Shown: positions 1,055-23,364, numbered from the stretch's first letter. The stretch is 64,000 nucleotides of DNA from Alphaproteobacteria bacterium (GCA_965214705.1 OZ243972.1:1536001-1600000); one strand, 5' to 3'. Program-made: numbers and translations. Notes: generated by a model from the sequence alone, not told the origin.

Positions 1055-1468
1055 ATGATGCCCACGGCCACCTGCCAGTATTGCGGCATCTGGAACGGGC
1101 CGGCAGACCAATGCGGCCCGCTCAAGAACGCCTGGGAGCGCGTCCAACCGGGAGACACGGTTCCGGCCGGCGAGTGCCCGAAGTGCAACGCCTCCGCGAT
1201 GCTCGACGAGACGAGGCAGGAACCCAGCGCCACCATCGTCACCACGCTGGTGCCGGAGCGCGCCACGAAGTTCGGCGTCCGCTCGACCGCGTCGGCCCTC
1301 GCCGACGTCATGTGGCTCGCCGCCAGCAGGTACAGCTACCGCGTCGAGGACCTCGGATCATCCGGCTTCCGGGTCGCGGTCTACCGCGAGACACCGAAGC
1401 GCGACACCGCTCCGCGCGGCTACCTGCGCATCGAGACCGCGTCAGCACAGCGGCGCCATCGGGCGTGA
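1055..1468 (+). CDS. hypothetical protein with two CxxC pairs (Zn-ribbon-like)
   Basis: RBS AAGGAG; CQYC...PAGECPKC. Confidence 0.6.
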   Translation: MMPTATCQYCGIWNGPADQCGPLKNAWERVQPGDTVPAGECPKCNASAMLDETRQEPSATIVTTLVPERATKFGVRSTASALADVMWLAASRYSYRVEDLGSSGFRVAVYRETPKRDTAPRGYLRIETASAQRRHRA

Positions 1469-2184: not shown

Positions 2185-2940
2185 ATGATGCCTTCGACCG
2201 AGACCCTCGGCCGCCACACCGTCCTTGCGGCCATTCTCGTCACCGCCCGCGCGATCGTCGCCGATCCCGCGCGCTGGTGCCACTACCACCACGCCAAGGA
2301 CGCCAACGGCCACACCTGCGAAGGACGTTCGGACCGCGCCGCCGCGTGGGGCGCCGTCGGCGCCCTCGACCGCGCGGCCGCTGACGCCGGCGCGGCGCAC
2401 GTCAACTTCCTCGACGCCCAGCAGCACATGAAGGACGCGTCCGTCATCGCCGGGCGCAAGTGGACCGGCACACCCTGGCTCCTCAGCACCGAGGCCGCAC
2501 ACGCCATGACCGTGGCGTGTTTCGACGAAGCGCTCGACATCCTGCGCAAGCCGCCCGCTCCCGGCCCGCTCCACGCCCTCGCCGTGGCCCGCACCCTGAT
2601 CGCCCGGCCCGAGCGCTGGGCGCAAGGCGCCATCGCCCTCGACCGGCGCGGCCGCGCCCTCGTCACCTTCGACGGCGGGTGCCGCTTCTGCGCCGCCGGC
2701 GCGCTCGGCCTTGCCAGCCACGTGCTGACCGAGCGGCCCCCGGACGGCAAGCTCGCCGGGTCCCCCTTCGACCAAGCCGAGCGCCTGCTCGACTCCGCTG
2801 CCTACAAGCTCGGCGAGTACCAGAGCTACATCGGCCTCAACGAGCACGACACTCACGCCAAGGTCGTCGCCATGTTCGACCACGCCCTCGACATGGCGCG
2901 TGCGGACTCCGCCCCTAGCCCGGAGGCATCGTCACCATGA
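2185..2940 (+). CDS. tandem-domain protein (DUF6197-like, two repeats)
   Basis: RBS GGAGGA. Two repeats of AR.LI..P.RW.....A.D..G......C/G A.GA. Confidence 0.6.
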   Translation: MMPSTETLGRHTVLAAILVTARAIVADPARWCHYHHAKDANGHTCEGRSDRAAAWGAVGALDRAAADAGAAHVNFLDAQQHMKDASVIAGRKWTGTPWLLSTEAAHAMTVACFDEALDILRKPPAPGPLHALAVARTLIARPERWAQGAIALDRRGRALVTFDGGCRFCAAGALGLASHVLTERPPDGKLAGSPFDQAERLLDSAAYKLGEYQSYIGLNEHDTHAKVVAMFDHALDMARADSAPSPEASSP

Positions 2941-3359: not shown

Positions 3360-3690
3360 CCGCCGCCGCCCGCCTTCCCCGCACGATCCGGAATCCGTAC
3401 CGCACGCCGCGTCCCGCGGTGATCAGCTTCTCAGGGGGCCGCACCTCGGGGTTCATGCTGAAGAAGATCCGATCCTGGCGGACTGGTGGATAGAGCAAGA
3501 GGCCAAGGTCGCGAATCGCACCGGCCCCGACGGCCGCGCCGGCGAATCGATGAAGCGCTTCCGCCTCGGCGAGACCTACGCCGAGCTGAAGGCCGCCGCG
3601 CTCGCCCACCGCGACCTGTTCGACGATGGCGCGGCGTCCTCCGCCAACGACGGCGACACCGATACCTTCGACTGCCACCGCACCGACTGA
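3356..3690 (+). pseudogene. PAPS-reductase-like (PP-loop) gene with a large internal deletion
   Basis: The N-terminal VISFSGGRTSGFML is joined out of frame, at GAAGAAGATC (~3460), to a C-terminal ADWWIEQE...RFR...C..TD segment. Confidence 0.65.
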
Positions 3691-3818
3691 TCTCCGCCAC
3701 TCCTCTTCCCGCCGCGCTCCGCCGAGAGGTCGAGCGGGATGCGTGACTTCCGGCGAGGGCCGGTGCTCGCGGAGCGAGTCCGGTCCTCTCCCATCCACGC
3801 ATTCCCGGAGACCGTTTC

Positions 3819-4150: not shown

Positions 4151-6310
4151 CCCAAGTTGGCACTTTTCCGCTGCCTGTGTTCCCTATTGGTTTGATTCAA
4201 CGCGATATTTTTCTCGGTCGATTCCAACATGGCCCCACATTTTGTGAGATTCTGTCAGCTCATCAGACGGGTCCTCGTGCGGTGGATGGCGGGGTCCACG
4301 CCCGCCGCCGAGGAGATTGCGGCAACCTCGGCGGCCGGGCGCGTGTCCTGGCGGTTGACGATCAAGGTGCCGTCGGTCTGGCGCAGGCGCGTGGTGATCC
4401 GCACCCAGGTCCGCATGCTCTCGCGGATCGACGCCCAGCACTTGTGGATGCCGCGCGCGGCCAGCCGGGTACGGATCAGATGCACGGCGTGGTAGGCCAG
4501 CACGGCGATCAGCAGGTGGGCCGCGATGCGCCGGTCGAGCTGGTGCCAGATCGGGCGAAGGCCGAGCTCGGATTTCAGGCTCCGGAATGTCGCCTCGATA
4601 TCCGTGATCCGCCAGTACGTCCGCAGGACCGTCTCGATGTCCCAGTCGACGTGGCTGGTGCGCAGCACATAGGCACCGGCGCCCTCATCGGCCTCGTCGT
4701 ATCGCGGCCTGCGCTTGAAGCGCACGGCGGTGGCATTGGGGCCGGTTTTCGCCCTCTCGACCGTGATCTCGTAGTGCCTGGCGACGGCGGAGAAGCGCTG
4801 CTTGAGGCGGCCTATGCTCTCCAGCACCTTGTCGTAGCGCTTGAGGCGGCCCTTGACCGGGAGGCCGCCGTGGAGCCTTTCCAGCGCCGCCTCGAAGCGG
4901 TTCCGCCTCAGGCCGATGATCGCGTTCTCGGCCTTCTTCTTGCCCTCGCTGACGACGTAGAGCCGCGCCTCGCCGTCCTCGCTGGCAAGCCGCCAGGCCC
5001 GCACCTCGTGGCGCGCGCTGGTGATCAGCAGGGCCTCGGGTCCGCCCTCGGGCGGCGCAGGCCTGGCACCGCGGCTGACCGCGATCCAGTCGTAGCCCTG
5101 CTCGCCCAGCCACGCGATGTTTTTCTCGGTGGCGATGCCCGCGTCCATGACCACCGTGGGCTTCGGCGCCGTGCCGCCGCACACCGCCTCGAGCCGCGCC
5201 AGCGCCTCGTGCAGCGTGCCCGGCTCGCTCACGTTGCCCGGCAGGATCTCGCAACTGCGCGGGAAGCCCGCGCCGTCGAGCGCCAGCGCCAGCGTGATGA
5301 GGGGACAGTCGTCGCGCTTCTGCTTGGAGCGCCCGAACCTGGGAAGCTCGCCGCCCGTGTGGCCGTGGTAGTGGACGTTGGTGAGATCGTAGAAGGCGAT
5401 CGTCTCGGGCAGGTCGAGCAGTGCGCGCTCACGGTTGAACAGCTCCCGCTGGATGGCGGCGCGGTGGCGCCAGAGCAGGTCGCCGATGCGGTAGAGCGTC
5501 TTGCGCCGCAGCGCCTTGCGGTCGCCCTCCAGGCCCAGGAGCTCGGCGGCCGCGCTGTCGTGGCGGAGCCAGCGGCTGGTATCACGCTCGCTGGCGGGAT
5601 GGACCATCCTGGCGACGATCAGCGCGCTGGCGATGCGCCCGTCGCGGCCCTTGATGTCGAGGCCGTGGAGGATTTCGGCGAAGCCGAGGGCGTCGAGGGC
5701 CTTGAGGCACAGGCGCTCGCAGCCGACCGTGCGCGGGTTCTCGTGCTCCAGGGTATCGAGGTCGACGGTGGCGATGTCGGGCTTGCGCGCCTCTTCCTGC
5801 ATCGCCTCGACGCGGAACCCCCTGGCCCTGAGCTTGGCGACGATGTCCTCGGCTGCGGCCCGCACATCCGCCTCGCCCTCGAACAGCGGCGGCTTGCCGT
5901 GAAGCAGCGCCTCGGCGAGTTCGGTGACGGCCTTCCACTTCTCGCGCGGCACCGGATAGTCGGTGCCGAGATTGAGCAGCGTCCTGTGGCGCACCTTGTC
6001 GCCGACGCGCTGGGCGAGCACGAGGCGATGGCTTCGGACCGGCTGGCCGGCCTTGTCGGTGTGTGTCCTGGTTGCCTTGATGTACATGGCGGCGCCGTTT
6101 CTGCGATGCCTGTTTCGCATACACGGCGTTCGCGGCATCTGGCAAGAGGGATATCGACTCAACTCCAAAGTCCTGGCCCCACAATTGGCTTCCAGGACCA
6201 CGAATGGCAAATGTGGGTCTCAGGTGTCCTCCAACCCCAACATCTAGTGGTTCAGCGCCGCAAAACTGGCTCGAACAGGCTCGGCTGGTCGGAAAAAGTG
6301 CCAACTTGGG
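4151..6310 (-). mobile_element. IS1634-family insertion sequence
   Basis: Terminal IRs CCCAAGTTGGCACTTTT / AAAAGTGCCAACTTGGG, flanking TCCA duplication. Removing the element restores parB ENVLQAAMHP. Confidence 0.9.
4255..6087 (-). CDS. IS1634-family DDE transposase
   Basis: FYDLTN, FGRSKQKRDD, VVMDAGI, IEATFRSLKSELGLRPIWH. Likely start MYIK at 6087 (ORF open to 6210). Confidence 0.9.
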   Translation of the reverse strand: MYIKATRTHTDKAGQPVRSHRLVLAQRVGDKVRHRTLLNLGTDYPVPREKWKAVTELAEALLHGKPPLFEGEADVRAAAEDIVAKLRARGFRVEAMQEEARKPDIATVDLDTLEHENPRTVGCERLCLKALDALGFAEILHGLDIKGRDGRIASALIVARMVHPASERDTSRWLRHDSAAAELLGLEGDRKALRRKTLYRIGDLLWRHRAAIQRELFNRERALLDLPETIAFYDLTNVHYHGHTGGELPRFGRSKQKRDDCPLITLALALDGAGFPRSCEILPGNVSEPGTLHEALARLEAVCGGTAPKPTVVMDAGIATEKNIAWLGEQGYDWIAVSRGARPAPPEGGPEALLITSARHEVRAWRLASEDGEARLYVVSEGKKKAENAIIGLRRNRFEAALERLHGGLPVKGRLKRYDKVLESIGRLKQRFSAVARHYEITVERAKTGPNATAVRFKRRPRYDEADEGAGAYVLRTSHVDWDIETVLRTYWRITDIEATFRSLKSELGLRPIWHQLDRRIAAHLLIAVLAYHAVHLIRTRLAARGIHKCWASIRESMRTWVRITTRLRQTDGTLIVNRQDTRPAAEVAAISSAAGVDPAIHRTRTRLMS

Positions 6311-6930: not shown

Positions 6931-8632
<1,702 letters not shown>

Positions 8633-8662
8633 GGGGTTTATATCCGAAGGTAACCGCGACCC

Positions 8663-8669
8663 ATAAATA
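8663..8669 (+). promoter_or_regulatory. T4-type late-promoter-like motif ATAAATA
   Basis: TAAATA at 8664-8669, 5 nt before ATG 8675. The same hexamer occurs at 9943, 10037(-) and 11734(-). Confidence 0.55.
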
Positions 8670-8674
8670 GGACC

Positions 8675-8941
8675 ATGGACACTGAGACGAAACGTCAGAT
8701 CATAGCCGAGCTGAGCGATAAGACGCTCAGGAGCTACCGCAAGAAGACAAAAGGCGACGATGACCGGTGGATCGGTCGAGCCATCGCGAAGGCCAAGATG
8801 ACCGGCAAGGTCGATCCCAACGCGCGCGACGAGACCAGCGTGGAGATCGGCAGCACTGAGCGGGAAGCAAGGGCACGAAGGAAGGCGAAGAAGGCGCTAC
8901 GGAGAGTCGTCAGGAACTTTCGCTCGCGTCGCGAGTCCTGA
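8675..8941 (+). CDS. small basic protein resembling T4-like phage internal head proteins
   Basis: MDTETKRQIIAE-LSDKTLRSYRKK...; K/R-rich; directly behind TAAATA. Confidence 0.6.
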   Translation: MDTETKRQIIAELSDKTLRSYRKKTKGDDDRWIGRAIAKAKMTGKVDPNARDETSVEIGSTEREARARRKAKKALRRVVRNFRSRRES

Positions 8942-9718
8942 CGCACTGGGTTTCAACCACGCCGGGTTCCCAGCGCGAGGCCAGAACAGTACAGGCGCCG
9001 CCATTCCCTTCTTTCTGTAGTCGTCGGGTAGCTTCTTTCTAACGTATCGGTCGAACGCGTCGCCGACGAAGACCTGTCTACCGACGAATCCGAACTTGTT
9101 CTTTCTCTCGTCAAGGGTACGACCTTCGGGTCGCCACGTACAGTCCTCGAACACGGCTACACAGGTCCCGTCGACTATCGCGAGTACGTAGTCCGCTCGA
9201 TTCGCCTTATCGCACTTGATCGTCCAACAGCATCGAACGGCTTCGTAAACACTACCCCATCGGTTGATCGTTTGCTCCTTAGTCTTGATGAAGATAAGTC
9301 GATGATGCGGGTCCGGTTTCATTGGCGGTGGGGCGTATCGTTCCTCGAGTTGTTCGGCAGTCGCCGGACCTCGTTTTCTTGAGTCCTCTCCCGTTGCCAA
9401 GTTGGTCAGCCCGCGCATTGCGTCGATCAATGCCGCCTCGACTTCCTTCGCCGTTTCCTCGCTCATTCCGTGACGGTGCACCACGTGACCCGGTTCGAGA
9501 CCGGCGAGTCGAATCTCGTGTATGATCTCTAGCTTTTCCGTAGGAGGATCGGTCTCCTCGTTCAGTACGAGATCCGCGTTCGCGTGAGCGTATACTCGAT
9601 CACCTTGTCCTCTCCCAACGTAGAAGGTTTGACCGTTTCTTGGATCGATCAGTCGGTATACGTAGTGATCGATCTCTCTCGCGACGCCGCTGGAAAATGA
9701 CTTTCGAACCTTGCCCAT
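8897..9718 (-). CDS. LEM-3-like GIY-YIG nuclease domain protein
   Basis: YVYRLIDPRNGQTFYVGRGQGDRV..H, EVEAALID, LTN. Probable ATG at 9718 (GTG 9730 possible). Confidence 0.85.
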   Translation of the reverse strand: MGKVRKSFSSGVAREIDHYVYRLIDPRNGQTFYVGRGQGDRVYAHANADLVLNEETDPPTEKLEIIHEIRLAGLEPGHVVHRHGMSEETAKEVEAALIDAMRGLTNLATGEDSRKRGPATAEQLEERYAPPPMKPDPHHRLIFIKTKEQTINRWGSVYEAVRCCWTIKCDKANRADYVLAIVDGTCVAVFEDCTWRPEGRTLDERKNKFGFVGRQVFVGDAFDRYVRKKLPDDYRKKGMAAPVLFWPRAGNPAWLKPSASGLATRAKVPDDSP

Positions 9719-9738
9719 ACCACACCCCACGTCCGTTC

Positions 9739-9891
9739 CGGCCCGGCCGTGGTGCCGGGCCGTTGCAGAAACGCACGCGAACGTGAGAAACCCCGCCTAT
9801 TCGCCGGGCAAGGGTGGCCAGACCCAAGTCGGGTAGCAGGCTGTTCTATTCAGCGGGCGACCCGACGGAGCGGGTTCACGCGCGTTTCTGC
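9739..9891 (-). ncRNA. putative structured leader/ncRNA upstream of the GIY-YIG gene
   Basis: 18-bp closing stem 9874-9891/9765-9782, with G-U pairs only on the minus strand; internal hairpins; then a 9-bp hairpin 9739-9762. TTGACG-18-TAGCCT lies upstream. Confidence 0.55.
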
Positions 9892-9953
9892 GGGATCGAG
9901 GCTAGGACGGACGGGAGACGGGCGTCAAGCGACACCGGCGACTAAATAGCGGC

Positions 9954-10030
9954 GGTTCCGTAGCTCAGTTGGATAGAGCAGTTGTCTTCCACGCTTCAGG
10001 TTGCGGGTTCGAGTCCCGCCGGAACCGCCA
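9954..10030 (+). tRNA. atypical tRNA / tRNA-like gene (Arg-type body, TCC at the anticodon position, mismatched anticodon stem)
   Basis: Acceptor GGTTCCG/CGGAACC-G-CCA; D arm GCTC-AGTTGGATA-GAGC; T arm GCGGG-TTCGAGT-CCCGC. The anticodon stem GTTGT/GCTTC has two T-T mismatches. Confidence 0.8.
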
Positions 10031-10059
10031 CGGCAGTATTTATCGAGACGATTCAATGA

Positions 10060-11136
10060 TCAAGCGGCCCGCTTGACCTCGACCTCGACGAGCGATTCCT
10101 GATCGCGTTGATCGTCGAGCGTGAGGGTGTCCTCGATGGTCTCGACGGTCTCCATCGGTGCCTTGGGTCGCCCACGACGAGGCTGCGTCGTGCCGGGCAC
10201 GAGGTCGCTCATCCTGCATCGGCGTCCGGTCATGCCCTTCGCCAGCTCGCCCATCGCGTCGATGGTGTCGAGTTCGCGAGCGTTGTGCCGGCCGGCGAAC
10301 TCCCGAACGTACCGGTCCAGGTGCCGCTGACTCAGGTGGTGGAACGTTCCCTGGTACCCGCGCTTGAGTTGCGCCCAGAAGGACTCGATCCCGTTGGTGT
10401 GCGCCATCCCGCGGACGTACTCGCCGGCGTTGTGGTCCACCGCCTCGTGCCGCTGCGGGATGCCACCGTAGGCCCGCGCGCCGTCCGTGTACACGGTGGC
10501 GTCCTCGCTCGCCGCCTCCGCCACGAAGCCGTGCAGGGTCTTCCTGTCGGTGGACTCCACGACCCTTGCGCGCACCTTCCCGTCGTCCCTGCCACGCGCG
10601 CCCGCGACGACGGCCTTGCCGCCCGCGCCGCTGCCGTAGCGTTCCCGAAGTTCCCTACGCTTCCCGGCGCGCATGTTCTTGCGCTTACCGCCGACGAACG
10701 TCTCGTCCACCTCGACCCCGCCCTCGAACGCCTCGCGCTCGCGGTCTCCCCACGCCTCGCGCAGTCGGTGCCCGAGGTGCCAGGCGTGCTTCTGGGTGAT
10801 GCCGAGGTCGCGGTGCAGCTTCATGCTGGACACACCCTTGAGACTGGCGACGTGCAGGTAGGTCGCCAGCGCCCAGACGCGGTAGCCCAGCTTGCTCGAC
10901 CGCATGACGGTGCCCGTCCTGAGCGAGAACATCGGGCGCTTGGGACAGGCGCGACAGCGGTGGGTCATGGACGGGTGCCTGACCTCGACCACGTTGTCGC
11001 CGCCGCAGCGCGGACCGTTCGGCCAGTAGACGCTCTCGAACCACCGTTCGGCGGTCGCGTCGTCGGGGAACGCCTCGATCACCTCGACGAGGCTCATGCC
11101 CCTGCGGTGCGCCCTCCCGGGCGCTTTTCCTGCCAT
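10060..11136 (-). CDS. IS1595-family (ISXO2-like) DDE transposase
   Basis: VSSMKLHRDLGITQKHAW, VEVDETFVGG, VYTDG, HTNGIESFW, RYVREF..RHN. Confidence 0.93.
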   Translation of the reverse strand: MAGKAPGRAHRRGMSLVEVIEAFPDDATAERWFESVYWPNGPRCGGDNVVEVRHPSMTHRCRACPKRPMFSLRTGTVMRSSKLGYRVWALATYLHVASLKGVSSMKLHRDLGITQKHAWHLGHRLREAWGDREREAFEGGVEVDETFVGGKRKNMRAGKRRELRERYGSGAGGKAVVAGARGRDDGKVRARVVESTDRKTLHGFVAEAASEDATVYTDGARAYGGIPQRHEAVDHNAGEYVRGMAHTNGIESFWAQLKRGYQGTFHHLSQRHLDRYVREFAGRHNARELDTIDAMGELAKGMTGRRCRMSDLVPGTTQPRRGRPKAPMETVETIEDTLTLDDQRDQESLVEVEVKRAA

Positions 11137-11153
11137 GACGAACCCTCCGTATG

Positions 11154-11192
11154 ATGTTATGACAGTATAACATATCTTTGAGAGAAAGTCAA
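11154..11192 (-). promoter_or_regulatory. sigma70 promoter of the transposase with an overlapping palindrome
   Basis: TTGACT-17-TATACT on the minus strand; ATGTTAT-N6-ATAACAT inverted repeat over the -10 box. Confidence 0.7.
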
Positions 11193-11728: not shown

Positions 11729-11798
11729 GTCTCTATTTATAGATCGATTCGAGGGTCGCGGTTACCTTCGGATATAAACCCCATTTATCCTCTCTGTA

Positions 11799-13824: not shown

Positions 13825-14011
13825 CCGCTGCATCCATGTAAGCTTCGGCCTGGATTATGGTGCGTCGTCAAAGAGCGGAAGAGATCTTTGCCGTTCAGGA
13901 TAGGATGTTGTCCTATAACCGTAGCTCCCCAAAAGTAACTGCCCAGGTCTGATTTCGCCGAGCATTGGGACGTGAGGGATTGTGGCGATCCGGCTTGGCG
14001 CCTGCGGATTT

Positions 14012-15567
14012 TCAGGTGCGCAGTTGCGGGACCAGTTGCATCGGGTCGGGATGGGCCAGGGTTTCGAGGACGTTCCAGCCTTGCTTTCGAGCGGTGGCTA
14101 TGACGGCACGCAGGATGGCGAAGTCGTAGGCGCCCTGCAGGGTTCGGAAGCAGCCTGATATTTTCTGTCGCAGCTTGGCCATTCGGAGATCTCGCTCGGC
14201 CTCGTTGTTTGTGAACGGGGTGCGCGGGTCCGTGAGGAAGCGCAGGCACCCCTCCTTGTTCTTCTGGAGCCGGCGCGCGAGATTGTGACCGGTTCGGCGC
14301 TTTTTCGCCCGCGCTTCTTGGTCTGGAGCGGCGGCTGCGCTTCGTGGAAGGCGATGGCGCGGTTGAGGGTTCGATCCCAGGCCCGGGAGATTTGGGCGAC
14401 CAGGGAGGCGGGCACGTCGCGGTCATTCTCACGGGCGAAGTGGGCGACCCTGCGGGCGCGCAAGAGGAGGCGGTGCATACTCGTTGCCCATTCCTCCTTC
14501 TCGATGTCGATCAGGGCCTGGAGTTCGCGCAGGTGATGTGCGTTGCAGGCACCGTGGCGGACGCCCTTGATGGTGAAGTAGGGGGCGAAGTCGTCGTGGA
14601 CGAGGATGCCTTGGAGGTTCTTTTCGACATCGCCGCGTCCCTCGCCGATGCGCAGGACGGTGAGCAACGGGGTGCACAGCACGTGGAGCCATCGGGTACG
14701 GGCGGCGATACGCAGGCCGGTCTCGTCGAGGTGCTTGACCGGCGCCTGCGTGCGGATCGGATCGGCGACGTGGTCGAGGAAGCCCTCGAAGCGTTGCGCT
14801 GTGCGCCGGCCCATGGCGGCGATCGTGGCAGTGGAGATGGATACCGCGAAGATGTCGCTCATGAGTTCGGCCAGACGCTTCTCTGGCACGAACTGGGCGT
14901 AGAGCAGGTAGCTCACCCAAGCGGTGATGCGAGGGCCGTACTGGACCGGGGCGGTGACGCCCGGCGGGAAGGCGGCTCGTGTCAGCGTGGCGCATGCGCC
15001 GCAGAGGCAGCGATGGGCGCGGTGTTCGGTGACCTCGAGAGGCTGCGGCTCGGGTACATCGAAGACCTGCCGACAGGCGGGCGCGCCCTGCCGGTCGGCG
15101 TCCGAGAGCTCAGCGCCACAGCCGGATACCCGGAACAAGTCCGGGCAGGCGGGAGGGTGGTGATCGACGACACGGTCCGGGCTGTCGCTCTGGGCAAGTG
15201 TGGTTCCTTTGTGGCCGGGCTGGCCGCCGCTGGGCCTGCCGGACTTTCCGCGCTGGCTTTGGGTGCGCCTCTGGGCACCGTTTTTCTTCTTGAGCCCGTC
15301 GCTGGCGGGGGGCTTGCTGCTTGTGGTGCTGTCGAGGGCCGCGCTGCGCTCGAGTTCGGCGATGCGCTCGCGCAGGGCCGCGTTCTCCCGCTCGAGTGCG
15401 GCATTTTCCCGGACCAGCGCGGCGGCCAATCGCAGCAGCCCCTGGCCCCATTCCCGAACGGCAACGGTGACAGTGGTTGCGAGGGATGATGGCTCGAGAA
15501 GCTCTTTCAGGCAGGAGAAGGCCTCGTCACGGGCGGCGAGGTCCTCGTGCCAGTGCGACACCGTCAC
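14012..15567 (-). pseudogene. IS66 transposase, frameshifted at an A5 run (copy 1)
   Basis: Mirror of copy 2; HLDETG, CNAHHLREL, and PFTNNEAERDLR in the shifted frame. Confidence 0.85.
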
Positions 15568-16244
15568 GTGTTTTCGGCCTCGACGGCCATCATGGCGGCG
15601 AGCACGGCGAGGCGTTCGCCCGGCGGCAAGGCCCGGTGGCGTCGGCCCCAGTTGGCTGCCTTGCGCTTGATGCGCTGGCGGTCGGTGAAGTTCCGGCCTG
15701 CGTGGCTGGCCCAATGCACCCGGTCGGGGGCGAAGTTGAACCAGACGACCTCGGTCCGCACCAGACCCTGGGTCGTGACCTGCAGCGCCAGCCGGCGCCA
15801 TCCCGCCAGCACCTCGTCATAGAGCGCCGACGGATGGCCCGAGATCATGACCTGGCAGGGCAGAGCCTTGAGCAGTTTGAGAAGCGCGACGTGGTCGGCC
15901 TCCTCGTACTCGAAGCGGTAGCGCTGCGAGGAGCGGCGGGTCGCGTGCAGATAGGGTGGATCGCTGTAAACCAGCTCCGGGCCCAGGAACGGGAACGAGG
16001 CCAGGAACTCATGGGCACAGCCGTGCACCAGATCGACCGGGTAATCGCAGACGAAGGCCTCAAGCGCCTGCGCATCGCGGTCGATGCCGATCGAGCGCAC
16101 GGCCGCCGGCTTGCGCCTCATCAGCGCCCCGCCCCCAAGGTGGCTTTCGATGTAGACGGAGTGCGGCGGCATCAGCGCAATCAGCGCCTGGCACAGACCA
16201 GCCGTCGCCTTCGAACCGAAATACCCCATCGACTCCCCCGTCAC
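15564..16244 (-). CDS. DNA adenine methyltransferase (Dam/D12-like), copy 1
   Basis: YFGSK, YIESHLGGGA (SAM binding), YSDPPY. Confidence 0.88.
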   Translation of the reverse strand: MTGESMGYFGSKATAGLCQALIALMPPHSVYIESHLGGGALMRRKPAAVRSIGIDRDAQALEAFVCDYPVDLVHGCAHEFLASFPFLGPELVYSDPPYLHATRRSSQRYRFEYEEADHVALLKLLKALPCQVMISGHPSALYDEVLAGWRRLALQVTTQGLVRTEVVWFNFAPDRVHWASHAGRNFTDRQRIKRKAANWGRRHRALPPGERLAVLAAMMAVEAENT

Positions 16245-16589
16245 GCGAGAGGCAGTCCATAGTCCCGCAACTCTATAAGGTCAAGAGCCAATCACGGTGC
16301 CAGAACCAGACCCCCGCAGGGCTGATTTATTCATTCGAGAAATCTTCATAAAATCAACCGATTACCGTGAACGGCATCTTCTCTTCAAGAACCGACGCGC
16401 TCGTCCGAAAGCTGCTGTTGGATCAATGCAGTACCTGGATGGGGCTTCGATCTCAGCACCGAGAACGAATTTGCCGTGCAGACCCCCGCCACCGCTATAA
16501 TCACCGGCGGCAACTCAGGATCGGGGTACCTGGGTAGTTACCCCCAAAAAAGGTTGTGGTGTATTCCACCGTCTGACGGAGGAATGCAG

Positions 16590-17712: not shown

Positions 17713-18029
17713 GGCGTCGTTTCCCTGGGAGACTTTGTGCAGCAATCCTCACGAAGTCGGCGACCAGGCAGTGTCAAGAGTTAAGAAGCACCCTCACTTC
17801 GGAAATCCGCGGGAGCAACATGATCGATATCCATCCCAGCACTGCCACACTCGGTAAAGCACCCTGGGCCAGCCGGTGGTGCTCGGTCGTTCAGCTGCCC
17901 AAGTGTAACTACCCAGGTACCCCGATCCTGAGTTGCCGCCGGTGATTATAGCGGTGGCGGGGGTCTGGTTCTGGCACCGTGATTGGCTCTTGACCTTATA
18001 GAGTTGCGGGACTATGGACTGCCTCTCGC

Positions 18030-18710
18030 GTGACGGGGGAGTCGATGGGGTATTTCGGTTCGAAGGCGACGGCTGGTCTGTGCCAGGCGCTGATTGCGCT
18101 GATGCCGCCGCACTCCGTCTACATCGAAAGCCACCTTGGGGGCGGGGCGCTGATGAGGCGCAAGCCGGCGGCCGTGCGCTCGATCGGCATCGACCGCGAT
18201 GCGCAGGCGCTTGAGGCCTTCGTCTGCGATTACCCGGTCGATCTGGTGCACGGCTGTGCCCATGAGTTCCTGGCCTCGTTCCCGTTCCTGGGCCCGGAGC
18301 TGGTTTACAGCGATCCACCCTATCTGCACGCGACCCGCCGCTCCTCGCAGCGCTACCGCTTCGAGTACGAGGAGGCCGACCACGTCGCGCTTCTCAAACT
18401 GCTCAAGGCTCTGCCCTGCCAGGTCATGATCTCGGGCCATCCGTCGGCGCTCTATGACGAGGTGCTGGCGGGATGGCGCCGGCTGGCGCTGCAGGTCACG
18501 ACCCAGGGTCTGGTGCGGACCGAGGTCGTCTGGTTCAACTTCGCCCCCGACCGGGTGCATTGGGCCAGCCACGCAGGCCGGAACTTCACCGACCGCCAGC
18601 GCATCAAGCGCAAGGCAGCCAACTGGGGCCGACGCCACCGGGCCTTGCCGCCGGGCGAACGCCTCGCCGTGCTCGCCGCCATGATGGCCGTCGAGGCCGA
18701 AAACACGTGA
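18030..18710 (+). CDS. DNA adenine methyltransferase (Dam/D12-like), copy 2
   Basis: Identical protein to 15564-16244; its TGA overlaps the GTG of the transposase. Confidence 0.88.
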   Translation: MTGESMGYFGSKATAGLCQALIALMPPHSVYIESHLGGGALMRRKPAAVRSIGIDRDAQALEAFVCDYPVDLVHGCAHEFLASFPFLGPELVYSDPPYLHATRRSSQRYRFEYEEADHVALLKLLKALPCQVMISGHPSALYDEVLAGWRRLALQVTTQGLVRTEVVWFNFAPDRVHWASHAGRNFTDRQRIKRKAANWGRRHRALPPGERLAVLAAMMAVEAENT

Positions 18711-20262
18711 CGGTGTCGCACTGGCACGAGGACCTCGCCGCCCGTGACGAGGCCTTCTCCTGCCTGAAAGAGCTTCTCGAGCCATCATCCCTCGCAACCA
18801 CTGTCACCGTTGCCGTTCGGGAATGGGGCCAGGGGCTGCTGCGATTGGCCGCCGCGCTGGTCCGGGAAAATGCCGCACTCGAGCGGGAGAACGCGGCCCT
18901 GCGCGAGCGCATCGCCGAACTCGAGCGCAGCGCGGCCCTCGACAGCACCACAAGCAGCAAGCCCCCCGCCAGCGACGGGCTCAAGAAGAAAAACGGTGCC
19001 CAGAGGCGCACCCAAAGCCAGCGCGGAAAGTCCGGCAGGCCCAGCGGCGGCCAGCCCGGCCACAAAGGAACCACACTTGCCCAGAGCGACAGCCCGGACC
19101 GTGTCGTCGATCACCACCCTCCCGCCTGCCCGGACTTGTTCCGGGTATCCGGCTGTGGCGCTGAGCTCTCGGACGCCGACCGGCAGGGCGCGCCCGCCTG
19201 TCGGCAGGTCTTCGATGTACCCGAGCCGCAGCCTCTCGAGGTCACCGAACACCGCGCCCATCGCTGCCTCTGCGGCGCATGCGCCACGCTGACACGAGCC
19301 GCCTTCCCGCCGGGCGTCACCGCCCCGGTCCAGTACGGCCCTCGCATCACCGCTTGGGTGAGCTACCTGCTCTACGCCCAGTTCGTGCCAGAGAAGCGTC
19401 TGGCCGAACTCATGAGCGACATCTTCGCGGTATCCATCTCCACTGCCACGATCGCCGCCATGGGCCGGCGCACAGCGCAACGCTTCGAGGGCTTCCTCGA
19501 CCACGTCGCCGATCCGATCCGCACGCAGGCGCCGGTCAAGCACCTCGACGAGACCGGCCTGCGTATCGCCGCCCGTACCCGATGGCTCCACGTGCTGTGC
19601 ACCCCGTTGCTCACCGTCCTGCGCATCGGCGAGGGACGCGGCGATGTCGAAAAGAACCTCCAAGGCATCCTCGTCCACGACGACTTCGCCCCCTACTTCA
19701 CCATCAAGGGCGTCCGCCACGGTGCCTGCAACGCACATCACCTGCGCGAACTCCAGGCCCTGATCGACATCGAGAAGGAGGAATGGGCAACGAGTATGCA
19801 CCGCCTCCTCTTGCGCGCCCGCAGGGTCGCCCACTTCGCCCGTGAGAATGACCGCGACGTGCCCGCCTCCCTGGTCGCCCAAATCTCCCGGGCCTGGGAT
19901 CGAACCCTCAACCGCGCCATCGCCTTCCACGAAGCGCAGCCGCCGCTCCAGACCAAGAAGCGCGGGCGAAAAAGCGCCGAACCGGTCACAATCTCGCGCG
20001 CCGGCTCCAGAAGAACAAGGAGGGGTGCCTGCGCTTCCTCACGGACCCGCGCACCCCGTTCACAAACAACGAGGCCGAGCGAGATCTCCGAATGGCCAAG
20101 CTGCGACAGAAAATATCAGGCTGCTTCCGAACCCTGCAGGGCGCCTACGACTTCGCCATCCTGCGTGCCGTCATAGCCACCGCTCGAAAGCAAGGCTGGA
20201 ACGTCCTCGAAACCCTGGCCCATCCCGACCCGATGCAACTGGTCCCGCAACTGCGCACCTGA
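18707..20262 (+). pseudogene. IS66 transposase, frameshifted at A5 (19969-19973), copy 2
   Basis: SSKPPASD, GGQPGHKG, HLDETG, LVHD, CNAHHLREL. The C-terminus PFTNNEAERDLRMAKLRQKISGCFR is in the -1 frame. Confidence 0.85.
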
Positions 20263-20464
20263 AAATCCGCAGGCGCCAAGCCGGATCGCCACAATCCCTC
20301 ACGTCCCAATGCTCGGCGAAATCAGACCTGGGCAGTTACGCCCAAGTATCGAATCCGGTAGATTCTCCAGCCCATTTGCAGTGGGACCATGTCACTTGTC
20401 CGCCAGCCTCGATATAGTTTCAACTCGCGTCGCCGAAGCTAGTCGTCGTCCGGCTCCCTCACCA

Positions 20465-21045: not shown

Positions 21046-23364
21046 TTACAGCCATCCCCGATCGCGGAATGCGTCGAGATCCACGCCGGGCGGCGCGTAC
21101 CAGCCATCCGCCCCGTATCGGGCGCCCATGCTGAAGGCCACTTCCTTGTTTCCGTACGGAATCCGAAGCGGCGTCGGCGAACCCGCGCTCGTCCGTGCCG
21201 TGCCGGCCGCTGTTTCGTTCCGGACAGGCTCCGGCCCGGACGTCCGACGCGATCCTGTCGCTTTCGGCCTCTCCGTGTCCGTCCGGACTCCCCCCGCCTT
21301 GCCCGGAATCCCGCCTCGTGACGCGGCGCCGGCCGTCCCGCCGCCCGAATTCCCTCCCGCCTGCTGCCCAGCGTTCCGCCTTGGGGCATGCTCATTGAGG
21401 AACGCCCGGCAGAGCGCCACCGACTTCGTGTATCCGGCCGGCGGCTTGATCCCTTTGCTCCTCGCGATCGAGGCCGCGAACTTCCGCATCTTCGCCGTCG
21501 GCGGCCGATCCCCGCCGCTGCCGGCGGCTTCACCAACGTCCACGACCTCTCCATCCGCGCCGCGCTCCCCGAGCCGGCCGATGATGCGCCGCGCCGAGTC
21601 GCACACGGCGTCGATCGCCCCCGTCATCTCCTGCCGGCCGGTCAGCACGTCGTCGAGCAGGCACTCGAGTTCCGCCGTCACGCCCGGGTCCACCAGCGCG
21701 GGATCGGCACGCTTCAGCACGCCGAACAGCGCGAGGCCCTGGTCGGTCGGCACTATGTTCTTCCCCTGCGCAGTCAGGAACCCCTGCTTCTTCAGGCCCG
21801 AAATGATCTCCGCCCGCGTCGCCGGCGTGCCGATCCCCTTGGCCTCCCGCAGCCGTTCGCGGAGCGCCTCGTCCTCGACGAAGCGCCATGCGTTCTGCAT
21901 CGCCTCGATCAGCGTGCCCTCCCGGTAACGGGGCGGAGGGCGCGTCTCCTTGTCCTCGATCGTGGGATCACGGAGACGCGCGGCATCGCCGTTCCGCAAG
22001 GGCGGCAGCGCCTGCGCCGCCTCGCCCTTCTCCTCGTCGGGCCGCCAGTCCGGAAAGGCGCCGCGCCAGCCGACTTCGATGGGCTGGCGCCCCGTCGCCC
22101 GGAACTCGAATCCCCGCACGTCCATGGTCACCGTGGTCTGGCGGTAGCGGTAGTCCGGCATGACCGAGGCCAGGTAGGACCGCGCGACCGCATCGAACAG
22201 CTTCTTCTCGTCCGCCGAGAGACGGGGCCAGACCTCGCGCAGGTCGCCAATCCTGTTCACGTTGGGGACGATCGCGTGATGGCTCGCGCCCTCCAGCCCC
22301 TTGTCGTGGAAGGCGCCGTTCCGGCCCTTGCGGATCGCCGGCGGCGACGGCACCGGGATATCCGCGTAAGCCCGGCCCGCGCACAGGCCCGCGACAATCT
22401 TCGGCACGTCCGCGGCGGCGCTCTCCGGCAGGTAGCGCACCTCGGCGCGGGGGTAGGTCAGGATCTTCTTGCCCTCCCCGTCGTAGAGCTCCTGCGCCAC
22501 CTCCAGCGCCTTAGACGCGGACCAGCCGAAGCGCGAGCTGCACAGCTTCTGCAGCGAGGGCAGGTCGTGCAGACGCGGCGGACGCTGGCGCTTGTCCTCG
22601 ACGCGCACGCCGAGCGGTCCCTCGAATTCCCGCGCCGCCTCGGCGACCGCCTCAGCCTTCGCGCGCTCGACGATGCGCTCCTTCGGCGCATGCCGCATCC
22701 TGAACTCGCCGCTCTCAGCGTGCGCCGTCGCCACCACCTCGAAATACTCCACCGGCACGAAGTCCCGGATCTCCAGCTCCCGCCGGCAGGCGAGCGCCAG
22801 CGTCGGCGTCTTGACCCGGCCGATCCCGATCACACCCCGCGAGCCTCGGCCCAGCGTCACCGTCGCGGTGCGGGTGAGCGACAGGTTGTAGATCTGATCC
22901 GCCTGCCGGCGTGCCACCGCCGCCTCGTAGAGCCGGGCGTGCTCGCCGTTGGGCCGGGCGCGCCGGAACGCCGCGCGAATGGTCTCCCCGTCCTGCGCCG
23001 TGAACAGCACCCGCAGCACCTCACCCCGGTAGCGGCAGTGTTCCAGGATTTCCTGGCCGATCAGCTGCCCCTCGCGGTCGCAGTCGGTGGCGAGCCACAC
23101 CCGGTCTGCCGTCTTCAGCGCGGCCCGGATCGCCTTCAGCTTCGCCGCCTTGTTACCGCCGGTGGCCGGCTTGGTGCCGTAGAGCCCGTCCGGCTTGAGC
23201 AATGCCGTCGACCAGCGCTTCCAGGCCGGGTTCACGTCCTCGGGCTCGCACAGGTCCAGCAGATGGCCCTCCGCTGCAAGAACTGCGCCGTAGCGCGAGC
23301 CCACGGCGGCCCGCACGTCCTTCGCCTGGCTCGCCTTCTCGGTGATGACGATCTGGCGCGTCAC
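21046..23364 (-). CDS. topB: type IA DNA topoisomerase (TopB/Topo III-like)
   Basis: ITEKASQA, LATDCDREG (Toprim), GRVKTPT, LTYPR (catalytic Tyr), HHAIVP, GIGTPATRAEII. Confidence 0.9.
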   Translation of the reverse strand: MTRQIVITEKASQAKDVRAAVGSRYGAVLAAEGHLLDLCEPEDVNPAWKRWSTALLKPDGLYGTKPATGGNKAAKLKAIRAALKTADRVWLATDCDREGQLIGQEILEHCRYRGEVLRVLFTAQDGETIRAAFRRARPNGEHARLYEAAVARRQADQIYNLSLTRTATVTLGRGSRGVIGIGRVKTPTLALACRRELEIRDFVPVEYFEVVATAHAESGEFRMRHAPKERIVERAKAEAVAEAAREFEGPLGVRVEDKRQRPPRLHDLPSLQKLCSSRFGWSASKALEVAQELYDGEGKKILTYPRAEVRYLPESAAADVPKIVAGLCAGRAYADIPVPSPPAIRKGRNGAFHDKGLEGASHHAIVPNVNRIGDLREVWPRLSADEKKLFDAVARSYLASVMPDYRYRQTTVTMDVRGFEFRATGRQPIEVGWRGAFPDWRPDEEKGEAAQALPPLRNGDAARLRDPTIEDKETRPPPRYREGTLIEAMQNAWRFVEDEALRERLREAKGIGTPATRAEIISGLKKQGFLTAQGKNIVPTDQGLALFGVLKRADPALVDPGVTAELECLLDDVLTGRQEMTGAIDAVCDSARRIIGRLGERGADGEVVDVGEAAGSGGDRPPTAKMRKFAASIARSKGIKPPAGYTKSVALCRAFLNEHAPRRNAGQQAGGNSGGGTAGAASRGGIPGKAGGVRTDTERPKATGSRRTSGPEPVRNETAAGTARTSAGSPTPLRIPYGNKEVAFSMGARYGADGWYAPPGVDLDAFRDRGWL

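Follow-up and report, generated by a model that had tools for sequence, protein, structure and literature searches.

A 64,000-nucleotide stretch of an Alphaproteobacteria bacterium genome (GCA_965214705.1, OZ243972.1:1536001-1600000; here called the window) contains, at positions 9954 to 10030 on the plus strand, a 77-nt tRNA gene that combines the body of an arginine tRNA with the anticodon UCC, which belongs to glycine. The gene lies inside a 3150-bp transposon of the IS1595 type that is present as a single copy in its genome. Irregular tRNA-like genes occur at nine loci of the same bacterial family, representing eight different IS1595 elements, and in seven of these eight the tRNA lies no more than 300 nt from the transposase gene. 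We regard it as an even call whether the window gene is an expressed cargo tRNA belonging to a recurrent class of IS1595-borne tRNAs in which body and anticodon are mismatched, a gene whose product would decode weakly or not at all.

ARAGORN made this gene its sole tRNA call in the window, with the anticodon tcc, and the gene scores 60.3 bits against the Rfam tRNA model RF00005 (cutoff, 29 bits), to which it aligns in full (model positions 1 to 71). By Rfam score it ranks 40th of the 47 matches in the genome, and all seven lower-ranking matches are long (82 to 103 nt). A first-pass annotation, made from the sequence alone, had described perfect acceptor, D, and T stems, an encoded CCA, two T-T mismatches in the anticodon stem, and the loop CTTCCAC, and all of these features were recovered by ARAGORN, by Rfam, and in the sequence itself (Table 1). 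The conserved tRNA core is completely in place (U8, A14, G18, G19, U33, G53, T54, T55, C56, A58, and C61). The anticodon stem, which reads G-C, U-U, U-U, G-C, and U-G, falls short of five base pairs, and the Rfam alignment contains exactly two nonstandard pairs, both of them in this stem. The same annotation had noted that a GGC leader might pair with the 3' GCC; the leader does pair with G73-C74-C75, which gives a 10-bp inverted repeat (9951 to 9960 and 10020 to 10029). In folding calculations the tRNA cloverleaf lies 3.6 kcal/mol above the minimum free energy, and two host tRNA-Arg genes lie 1.0 and 4.9 kcal/mol from theirs.

The body of the tRNA was assigned by comparison with the tRNAs of the host, its family, and its phylum. 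The nearest host tRNA is tRNA-Arg(tct), which is identical at 58 of 77 positions, and the host tRNA-Gly(tcc) is not among the eight nearest host tRNAs. Identity to the arginine tRNAs of the family and phylum ranges from 74 to 82%, and the 49 nearest tRNAs in 400 phylum genomes comprise 47 arginine tRNAs (42 with the anticodon UCU, 2 UCG, 2 CCU, and 1 ACG), one methionine tRNA, one aspartate tRNA, and no glycine tRNA. The gene was compared with 34 distinct 77-nt tRNA-Arg relatives, with positions conserved in at least 97% of them counted as near-invariant. Forty-one of the 42 near-invariant arginine positions are retained, the lone exception being C38, which is found in 1 of the 34 relatives. 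C36 is found in none of the 34, nor is a U-U pair at 28-42 or 29-41, and the only nonstandard anticodon stem pair among these relatives is at 27-43 (3 of 34). The A at position 20 is shared with 33 of the relatives and G73 with all 34.

Bacterial arginine identity is set by A20, which is the strongest determinant for arginyl-tRNA synthetase (ArgRS), together with C35, U or G at position 36, and A or G at position 73, whereas the bacterial glycine set includes C35, C36, G1-C72, U73, and C2-G71 (PMC9976931; its Table 1 for U/G36). The window tRNA has A20, C35, and G73 of the arginine set, with C36 where U or G would be listed. It has C35, C36, and G1-C72 of the glycine set, with G73 and G2-C71 in the places of U73 and C2-G71. 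The departures from tRNA-Arg amount to six substitutions and no insertions or deletions. At the level of sequence, these comparisons establish that the ancestor of the gene was of the tRNA-Arg(UCN) type and that the anticodon arm has since been rewritten, by U36 to C, A38 to C, and the two U-U pairs. The four disruptive changes all fall within the 17-nt anticodon arm, and the approximately 52 other constrained positions have no such change, an outcome that by our own arithmetic has a chance of (17/69)^4, or about 0.004, if hits were uniform. The proposals in the first-pass annotation that the gene is a chimera of an arginine body and a glycine anticodon and that only its anticodon arm is damaged thus both agree with the comparisons, the former through the 47 of 49 arginine neighbors, the A20/C35/G73 set, and the missing glycine elements U73 and C2-G71, the latter through the 41 of 42 retained positions and the absence of the U-U pairs from all 34 relatives.

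No close homolog of the gene was recovered. A pattern with a fixed body and a free anticodon arm had no match in GTDB genome contigs; in JGI metagenome contigs there was no match to the body pattern or to the exact anticodon arm, and viral contigs had no match to a pattern of D arm plus T arm. Plasmids gave just three weak partial matches, the best match among phages was about 80% identical, that among 43 family genomes was 80% identical, and that among the 400 phylum genomes, a normal tRNA-Arg, was 82% identical. The annotation had named close homologs that are normal tRNA-Arg(UCU) genes as the outcome that would count against it, and none appeared, the nearest normal tRNA-Arg being the one at 82%.

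The transposon-borne position of the gene, also part of the first-pass description, rests on an IS1595 transposase gene and a perfect pair of 30-bp terminal inverted repeats. The transposase matches PF12762 (E = 5.3e-38) and PF12760 in Pfam and the NCBIfam model NF033547 at 185 bits (cutoff, 75), and thus has the combination by which IS1595 elements are recognized, a DDE_Tnp_IS1595 transposase with an N-terminal zinc ribbon. Within the family, the element is ISNwi1-like. Its ends resemble those of four related elements (L002, L216, L224, and L177). The tRNA gene lies beside the transposase 3' end, and the two genes are convergent.

Transposition of IS1595 elements is expected to leave an 8-bp target site duplication, and none is present here (TGAATATC on the left of the element versus ATTTATCC on the right). 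To the left, a RecD2-type helicase gene (6931 to 8595, minus strand) is truncated by the transposon, its match to TIGR01448 beginning at profile position 171, and contigs of relatives that carry this flanking helicase gene part from the window at 8628. The DNA from 11783 onward is not the continuation of RecD2, is richer in A+T, and contains repeated TCGACATGTT motifs. Since the right flank does not continue RecD2 and there is no target duplication, a deletion or later rearrangement beside the element is likely on the evidence of these flanks.

A related insertion sequence (IS) in the same genome, L002, encodes a transposase that is 63% identical at the protein level. The two elements share the transposase and a structured repeat of approximately 125 nt just 3' of the transposase stop codon, and L002 contains no tRNA. 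On the basis of the alignment between them, the segment from 9943 to 10195 would have been inserted into the transposase gene at its far 3' end, and 9906 to 9942 would be a remnant of the old stop region. The inserted segment encodes both the tRNA and a 45-aa C-terminal tail of the transposase (10060 to 10195, minus strand). This tail is present in none of the 119 listed transposase homologs (310 to 366 aa, covering 86 to 89% of the query), and of the 253-bp segment, nothing but the tRNA has a match in the 400 phylum genomes.

TAAATA motifs were said in the first-pass annotation to face the tRNA from both sides, and they do, at 5 and 6 nt from its ends. The window contains four copies of this motif where 0.61 would be expected, all of them within the 3.15-kb element, and the only cluster of four among the 83 copies in the 7.9-Mb genome is the one in this element. 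None of the 52 other ARAGORN tRNA calls in the genome has a TAAATA-type box within 15 nt of either end. A genome-wide use of the motif as a promoter of leaderless genes was not supported, as start codons show no preferred offset after it. Homology of the tRNA flanks to the IS ends beyond TAAATA itself was not supported either, local alignments scoring within 1 to 2.5 standard deviations of shuffled sequences. A scan of the window for signals found no terminator-like site 3' of the tRNA. A TAAATA or TAAGTA box also lies 5 to 6 nt before the ATG of a small open reading frame just inside one end of both the window element (8664 to 8677) and L002 (approximately 520 to 540), in what looks from the sequence like a leaderless mRNA arrangement.

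A protein search with the transposase yielded 87 matches in 18 of 44 family genomes. Seventy were retrieved with their flanks, 10 copies in the window's own genome were checked by distance alone (nearest tRNA at least 37 kb away), and 7 were left out. The tRNAs carried by the eight elements are listed in Table 1. Nine that were rescanned score above the Rfam tRNA cutoff, at 38.9 to 61.8 bits, and the tRNA-Sec-like gene of L224 matches RF01852 at 52.9 bits (cutoff, 47). Inverted repeats enclose the tRNA in three of the relatives (L216, L224, and L177). As a control, L182 exemplifies a chance neighbor, an ordinary tRNA-Pro identical to that of its host at 76 of 77 positions. ARAGORN calls in L231 and L254, which lie far from the transposase in apparent coding sequence, were dropped as likely false positives without an Rfam check. 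Among other families of the class, 1 of 24 sampled loci (10 genomes) carries a Ser-like tRNA with a UAG anticodon.

The cargo tRNAs of the family share features of their surroundings. A TAA[AG][GT][AT] box occurs within 15 nt upstream of 5 of 10 family cargo tRNAs versus none of 52 host tRNAs, and in those five, the window gene and four others, the box is a TAAATA or TAAGGT that sits 3 to 5 nt upstream. In three cargo tRNAs the leader is complementary to the 3' end, including the CCA, and a mirrored box follows; the mirrored box is TACTTA in L170 and TATTTA after the first L176 tRNA. In four elements (the window element, L200, L216, and L224) the tRNA and transposase genes converge, with the tRNA no more than 300 nt downstream, whereas in L170, L176, and L248 the tRNA is upstream of the transposase gene and divergent from it. 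The three arginine-type cargo tRNAs, with anticodons UCC, GAC, and GAC, have a common D arm, T loop, and G73, acceptor stems that are individually compensated, and wholly different anticodon arms. The first-pass annotation had suggested comparing homologs for a body that is conserved while the anticodon arm varies, and this IS-borne trio shows that pattern.

If the window gene is an expressed and poorly decoding cargo tRNA, transcription would proceed from the TAAATA box 5 nt upstream and yield a transcript with almost no 5' leader, since box 2, if it acts as a -10 element, would set the start at or beside tRNA position 1. The product would be charged by ArgRS, through A20, C35, and G73, rather than by the glycine enzyme, and the tandem U-U pairs would weaken the anticodon stem and make it a poor decoder, with at most a low level of arginine inserted at GGA and GGG codons and possibly no decoding at all. 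Several observations weigh against this reading. Box 2 has no -35 partner on direct reading, and a promoter scan gave no call there. C36 lies outside the arginine determinants listed in PMC9976931. The arginine-type trio is no closer mutually than to host tRNA-Arg, which lends no support to a common descent of the cargo, and the single copy of the element, together with the lack of any tRNA homolog above 82% identity in any collection searched, provides no measure of selection on the window tRNA. The nuclease gene that adjoins the tRNA in the element has GGA or GGG at five invariant glycines and the transposase gene has 13 such codons, so that efficient insertion of arginine there would damage the element's own genes. 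Finally, among some 1.7 million bacterial tRNAs, just 0.2% depart from an anticodon stem of 4 or 5 bp (PMC13092985, section 17), a rarity that makes a dead gene a fair reading.

In that case the gene would be a dying hitchhiker, a tRNA-Arg(UCU) gene acquired along with the 250-bp segment and now decaying without a role, with the changes in its arm being either the first hits or changes selected to silence a harmful, arginine-charged reader of glycine codons. We hold this to be a live possibility, if on the whole an unlikely one. It would accommodate a single-copy element without a target duplication, an insertion that changed the C terminus of the transposase, the lack of a conserved homolog in the collections searched, and an anticodon stem with two mismatches, which is very rare in bacterial tRNAs (PMC13092985), and it has a precedent in an allo-tRNA pseudogene with base pair disruptions that overlaps a transposon-related open reading frame (PMC5389517). 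Uniform decay is, however, at odds with the placement of four of four disruptive changes in the 17-nt arm (about 0.004, as calculated above), and IS1595 elements that differ from one another, and in the bodies of their tRNAs, have the flanking box and palindromic leader in common, which speaks for selection of expression signals. A second alternative, put forward in the first-pass annotation, is a nondecoding tRNA mimic: the RNA would be made and perhaps charged but would work away from the ribosome, where it would soak up a synthetase or EF-Tu, divert a nuclease or toxin that targets tRNAs, or be toxic in its own right. We think this very unlikely: searches of Pfam, PADLOC, and NCBIfam models found no tRNA-targeting enzyme or antitoxin-like partner in the element, the family of the adjoining nuclease acts on modified DNA and not on tRNA (PMC12923530), and the 80 best GIY-YIG loci include no tRNA in the corresponding position and no IS1595 transposase. 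The proposal does have in its favor an intact body with a disabled anticodon arm, on a mobile element next to a defense gene. It also has published parallels, since some irregular tRNAs are charged but idle in translation, some have destabilized stems and no translational activity, and, among destabilized allo-tRNA-UAU variants that were inactive, two were toxic and killed Escherichia coli (PMC5389517).

The symmetry of the boxes, 5 and 6 nt from the tRNA ends, would fit a cis-regulatory module. The convergent boxes would then drive a sense tRNA-like RNA antisense to the transposase 3' end and an antisense RNA serving as 5' leader to the nuclease mRNA, with the tRNA fold serving mainly for RNA stability or processing. 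The convergent placement of the tRNA in four elements, at most 300 nt past the transposase gene, and the lack of a terminator-like site found after the tRNA are compatible with this arrangement, but an antisense overlap is impossible in L170, L176, and L248, where the tRNA is upstream and divergent, and we give the module little credence. An assembly or sequencing artifact in an ordinary tRNA gene is hardly credible. The host genome looks like a long-read assembly and has an estimated contamination of 8.7%, but contigs from five runs, four of one study and one of another, reproduce 9861 to 10063 with zero differences, and the departures are six substitutions rather than insertions or deletions. 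It is the contig of the other study that disfavors an error, although its depth is only 3.7 and its independence from the source sample is unconfirmed.

The preferred reading, a weakly decoding cargo tRNA, has a bolder extension in which IS1595-type transposons would be vehicles of recoding tRNAs that deliberately corrupt translation, with arginine bodies at glycine and valine codons and serine bodies at stop, proline, and leucine codons. The window tRNA would then be an attenuated Arg-at-Gly member, with a leaderless start from its own TAAATA box, beside a restriction nuclease in a mobile package for stress, addiction, or action against invaders; we judge this to be quite unlikely. A private code, in which the tRNA would restore arginine at glycine codons of the element, was considered separately and rejected. 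The transposase departs 15 times from residues that at least 85% of its homologs conserve, and none of these departures is an R-to-G change, the GGA and GGG codons of the nuclease gene fall at invariant glycines, and L200, which carries a tRNA with an ochre anticodon, has no premature stop codon in its transposase gene.

The other contents of the element include a GIY-YIG nuclease, which matches Pfam family PF22945 and the PADLOC model PD-T4-3 (E = 5.1e-65; profile positions 3 to 252 of 256) and, among solved structures, the PDB entries 9u75 (E = 1.3e-49; residues 11 to 251) and 9u7u (E = 4e-48). The PD-T4-3 enzyme was characterized in 2026 as CMoRE, a type IV restriction enzyme acting on DNA with 5-hydroxymethylcytosine (5hmC) and glucosyl-5hmC (PMC12923530). 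From its sequence, the IS would thus move a homolog of an antiphage defense gene. The nuclease family is widespread, with 1,122 proteins at E values of 0.001 or less. A link between tRNA and nuclease was rejected. The enzyme family cuts modified DNA (PMC12923530), none of the 80 best homolog loci has an IS1595 transposase, and although five of them have some tRNA less than 4 kb away, it is never in the corresponding place. The short open reading frame orf88 had no match among PADLOC or NCBIfam models.

The structured repeat of approximately 125 nt gave subthreshold matches to sRNA-Xcc1 (RF02221) in 5 of 17 copies (26 to 32 bits; cutoff, 53), all on the equivalent of the window's minus strand. 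By eye, it consists of invariant blocks and two variable hairpins with compensating changes. The genus has many copies, at most 87% identical, and further copies stand at L150 to L167 and six other genome sites; the repeat lies just upstream of unrelated genes and beside IS1595 transposases. Outside the element, the window contains a perfect 2,383-bp inverted duplication (13935 to 16317 and 17957 to 20339), with an IS66-family transposase of 567 aa in each arm and, within its 1.6-kb spacer, a 63-bp perfect inverted repeat (16479 to 16541 and 17905 to 17967); this arrangement may represent a composite transposon or a structure sensitive to assembly. A type IA topoisomerase gene (21046 to 23364, minus strand) has a weak, subthreshold match to DUF5710. 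The topoisomerase, the helicase, and the IS copies suggest that the first 25 kb of the window belong to an integrated island of plasmid-like or conjugative character.

Table 1. Features of the window tRNA and its carrier transposon (window positions) and tRNAs of the IS1595 elements (positions within each locus)
Feature	Position	Strand	Sequence or anticodon	Remarks
tRNA acceptor stem			GGTTCCG/CGGAACC	Perfect; direct reading of sequence
tRNA D stem			GCTC/GAGC	Perfect; direct reading
tRNA D loop			AGTTGGATA	A at position 20, U20a
tRNA anticodon stem			GTTGT/GCTTC	T-T at 28-42 and 29-41, T-G at 31-39
tRNA anticodon loop			CTTCCAC	C38
tRNA T stem			GCGGG/CCCGC	Perfect
tRNA 3' end				Discriminator G73; CCA encoded
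TAAATA box 1	8664-8669	+	TAAATA	One base inside left repeat, 5 nt before orf88 ATG
TAAATA box 2	9943-9948	+	TAAATA	5 nt upstream of tRNA position 1; resembles promoter -10 element
TAAATA box 3	10037-10042	-	TAAATA	Faces tRNA 3' end, 6 nt from CCA
TAAATA box 4	11734-11739	-	TAAATA	Inside right end, facing inward
Left terminal inverted repeat	8633-8662		GGGGTTTATATCC...	30 nt, 100% complementary to 11753-11782
Right terminal inverted repeat	11753-11782			30 nt, perfect partner of 8633-8662
IS1595-family DDE transposase	10060-11136	-		358 aa, unique 45-aa C-terminal tail
Putative sigma-70-like transposase promoter	11164-11192	-	TTGACT, 17-nt spacer, TATACT	Consensus match only
Segment absent from L002	9943-10195			About 250 bp (253); holds tRNA module and sequence of 45-aa transposase tail
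Likely remnant of ancestral transposase 3' end and stop codon	9906-9942	-	GGCGTCAAGC	Aligns with L002 stop region, with which the sequence given is shared
Passenger GIY-YIG nuclease	8897-9730	-		Full-length PD-T4-3/CMoRE type IV restriction endonuclease homolog
orf88	8675-8941	+		88-aa open frame, candidate gene only
Structured dispersed repeat, ~125 nt	9751-9874	-		Weakly like sRNA-Xcc1; common to related IS copies and many genus sites
Window tRNA			UCC	Arg-type body
L176 second tRNA	2559-2778 (L176 tRNA region)		GAC (Val)	Arg-type body; 62/77 identical to host Arg(tct)
L216 tRNA	3487-3565		GAC (Val)	Arg-type body; nearest host tRNAs are Arg
L200 tRNA	2258-2346		UUA (ochre)	Ser-type body; 74/90 identical to host tRNA-Ser
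L224 tRNAs	3602-3692 and 4481-4571		AGG (Pro)	Ser-type body, 78/93 to host Ser; plus tRNA-Sec-like gene
L177 tRNA	1163-1250		GUU (Asn)	Long variable arm; body isotype ambiguous
L170 tRNA (second copy in L187)	1303-1378		GGA	By eye allo-tRNA-like; 12-bp leader/3'-end repeat
L176 first tRNA			GGCA, four-base anticodon (ARAGORN)	By eye allo-tRNA-like; 13-bp repeat, 92%
L237 tRNA			UGG	Long variable arm; 1.1 kb from transposase

Extra tRNAs in which identity and anticodon are mismatched can rewrite the genetic code locally, and so far they have been mainly scattered curiosities, namely, the allo-tRNAs and a few mistranslating tRNAs. In the eight elements described here, mismatched tRNAs appear as regular passengers of one IS family in this bacterial family, and the window tRNA is probably a deliberate passenger. 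If these tRNAs are active, transposons would spread codon-reassigning or translation-poisoning RNAs between genomes, which would bear on genetic code change and on mobile element addiction and defense; if they are inactive, IS1595 elements still repeatedly capture and disable tRNA genes. There is also a consequence for annotation, as standard tools name the window gene "tRNA-Gly."

In the literature searched, which left supplements and many subscription papers outside, nothing direct was found on insertion sequences, of the IS1595 family or others, that have tRNAs as cargo. IS1595-family elements that carry passengers are reportedly the subject of work by Siguier, Gagnevin, and Chandler from 2009 (Res Microbiol). 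The window element is like these in its zinc ribbon DDE transposase, its ends beginning GGGG-TTTATAT, and the additional genes that separate the transposase from one end, and unlike them in that its passengers are a tRNA and a homolog of an antiphage restriction nuclease and in that it has no 8-bp target duplication. The tRNA itself resembles bacterial tRNA-Arg(UCU) in its 77-nt architecture, A20 and U20a, G73, CCA, and T arm and differs from it in the anticodon UCC, in C38 for A38, and in an anticodon stem with two U-U pairs. Streptomyces tRNA-ProA, said to have been described by Vargas-Rodriguez et al. in 2021, is reportedly a mistranslating tRNA whose identity and anticodon belong to different amino acids. 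With such mistranslating tRNAs and the accessory tRNAs of phages, the window gene has in common that it is an extra, horizontally moving tRNA gene; unlike them, it is carried by an insertion sequence and has no dedicated synthetase nearby.

The closest comparison is with the allo-tRNAs and other irregular tRNAs of Mukai et al. (2017, Nucleic Acids Res 45:2776; PMC5389517), who reported irregular tRNA genes near transposon-related open reading frames and toxin-antitoxin genes. The passages of that paper drawn on here give no account of IS1595 transposons as regular carriers. The window tRNA is like the set of Mukai et al. in having an anticodon unrelated to the identity of its body and an association with a mobile element, and its relatives extend the likeness through the Sec-like gene of L224 and the tRNA of L170 and first tRNA of L176, which by eye are allo-tRNA-like. 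Allo-tRNAs have acceptor and T stems of 8/4 or 9/3 bp, forming a 12-bp branch, and serine or alanine identity (PMC5389517), whereas the window tRNA has the canonical 7/5 arrangement and arginine marks, and its three extra pairs on the acceptor side involve G73, C74, and C75. Because it is missing the 8/4 or 9/3 architecture, the window tRNA is not an allo-tRNA, and it is best filed beside the irregular tRNAs and allo-tRNAs.

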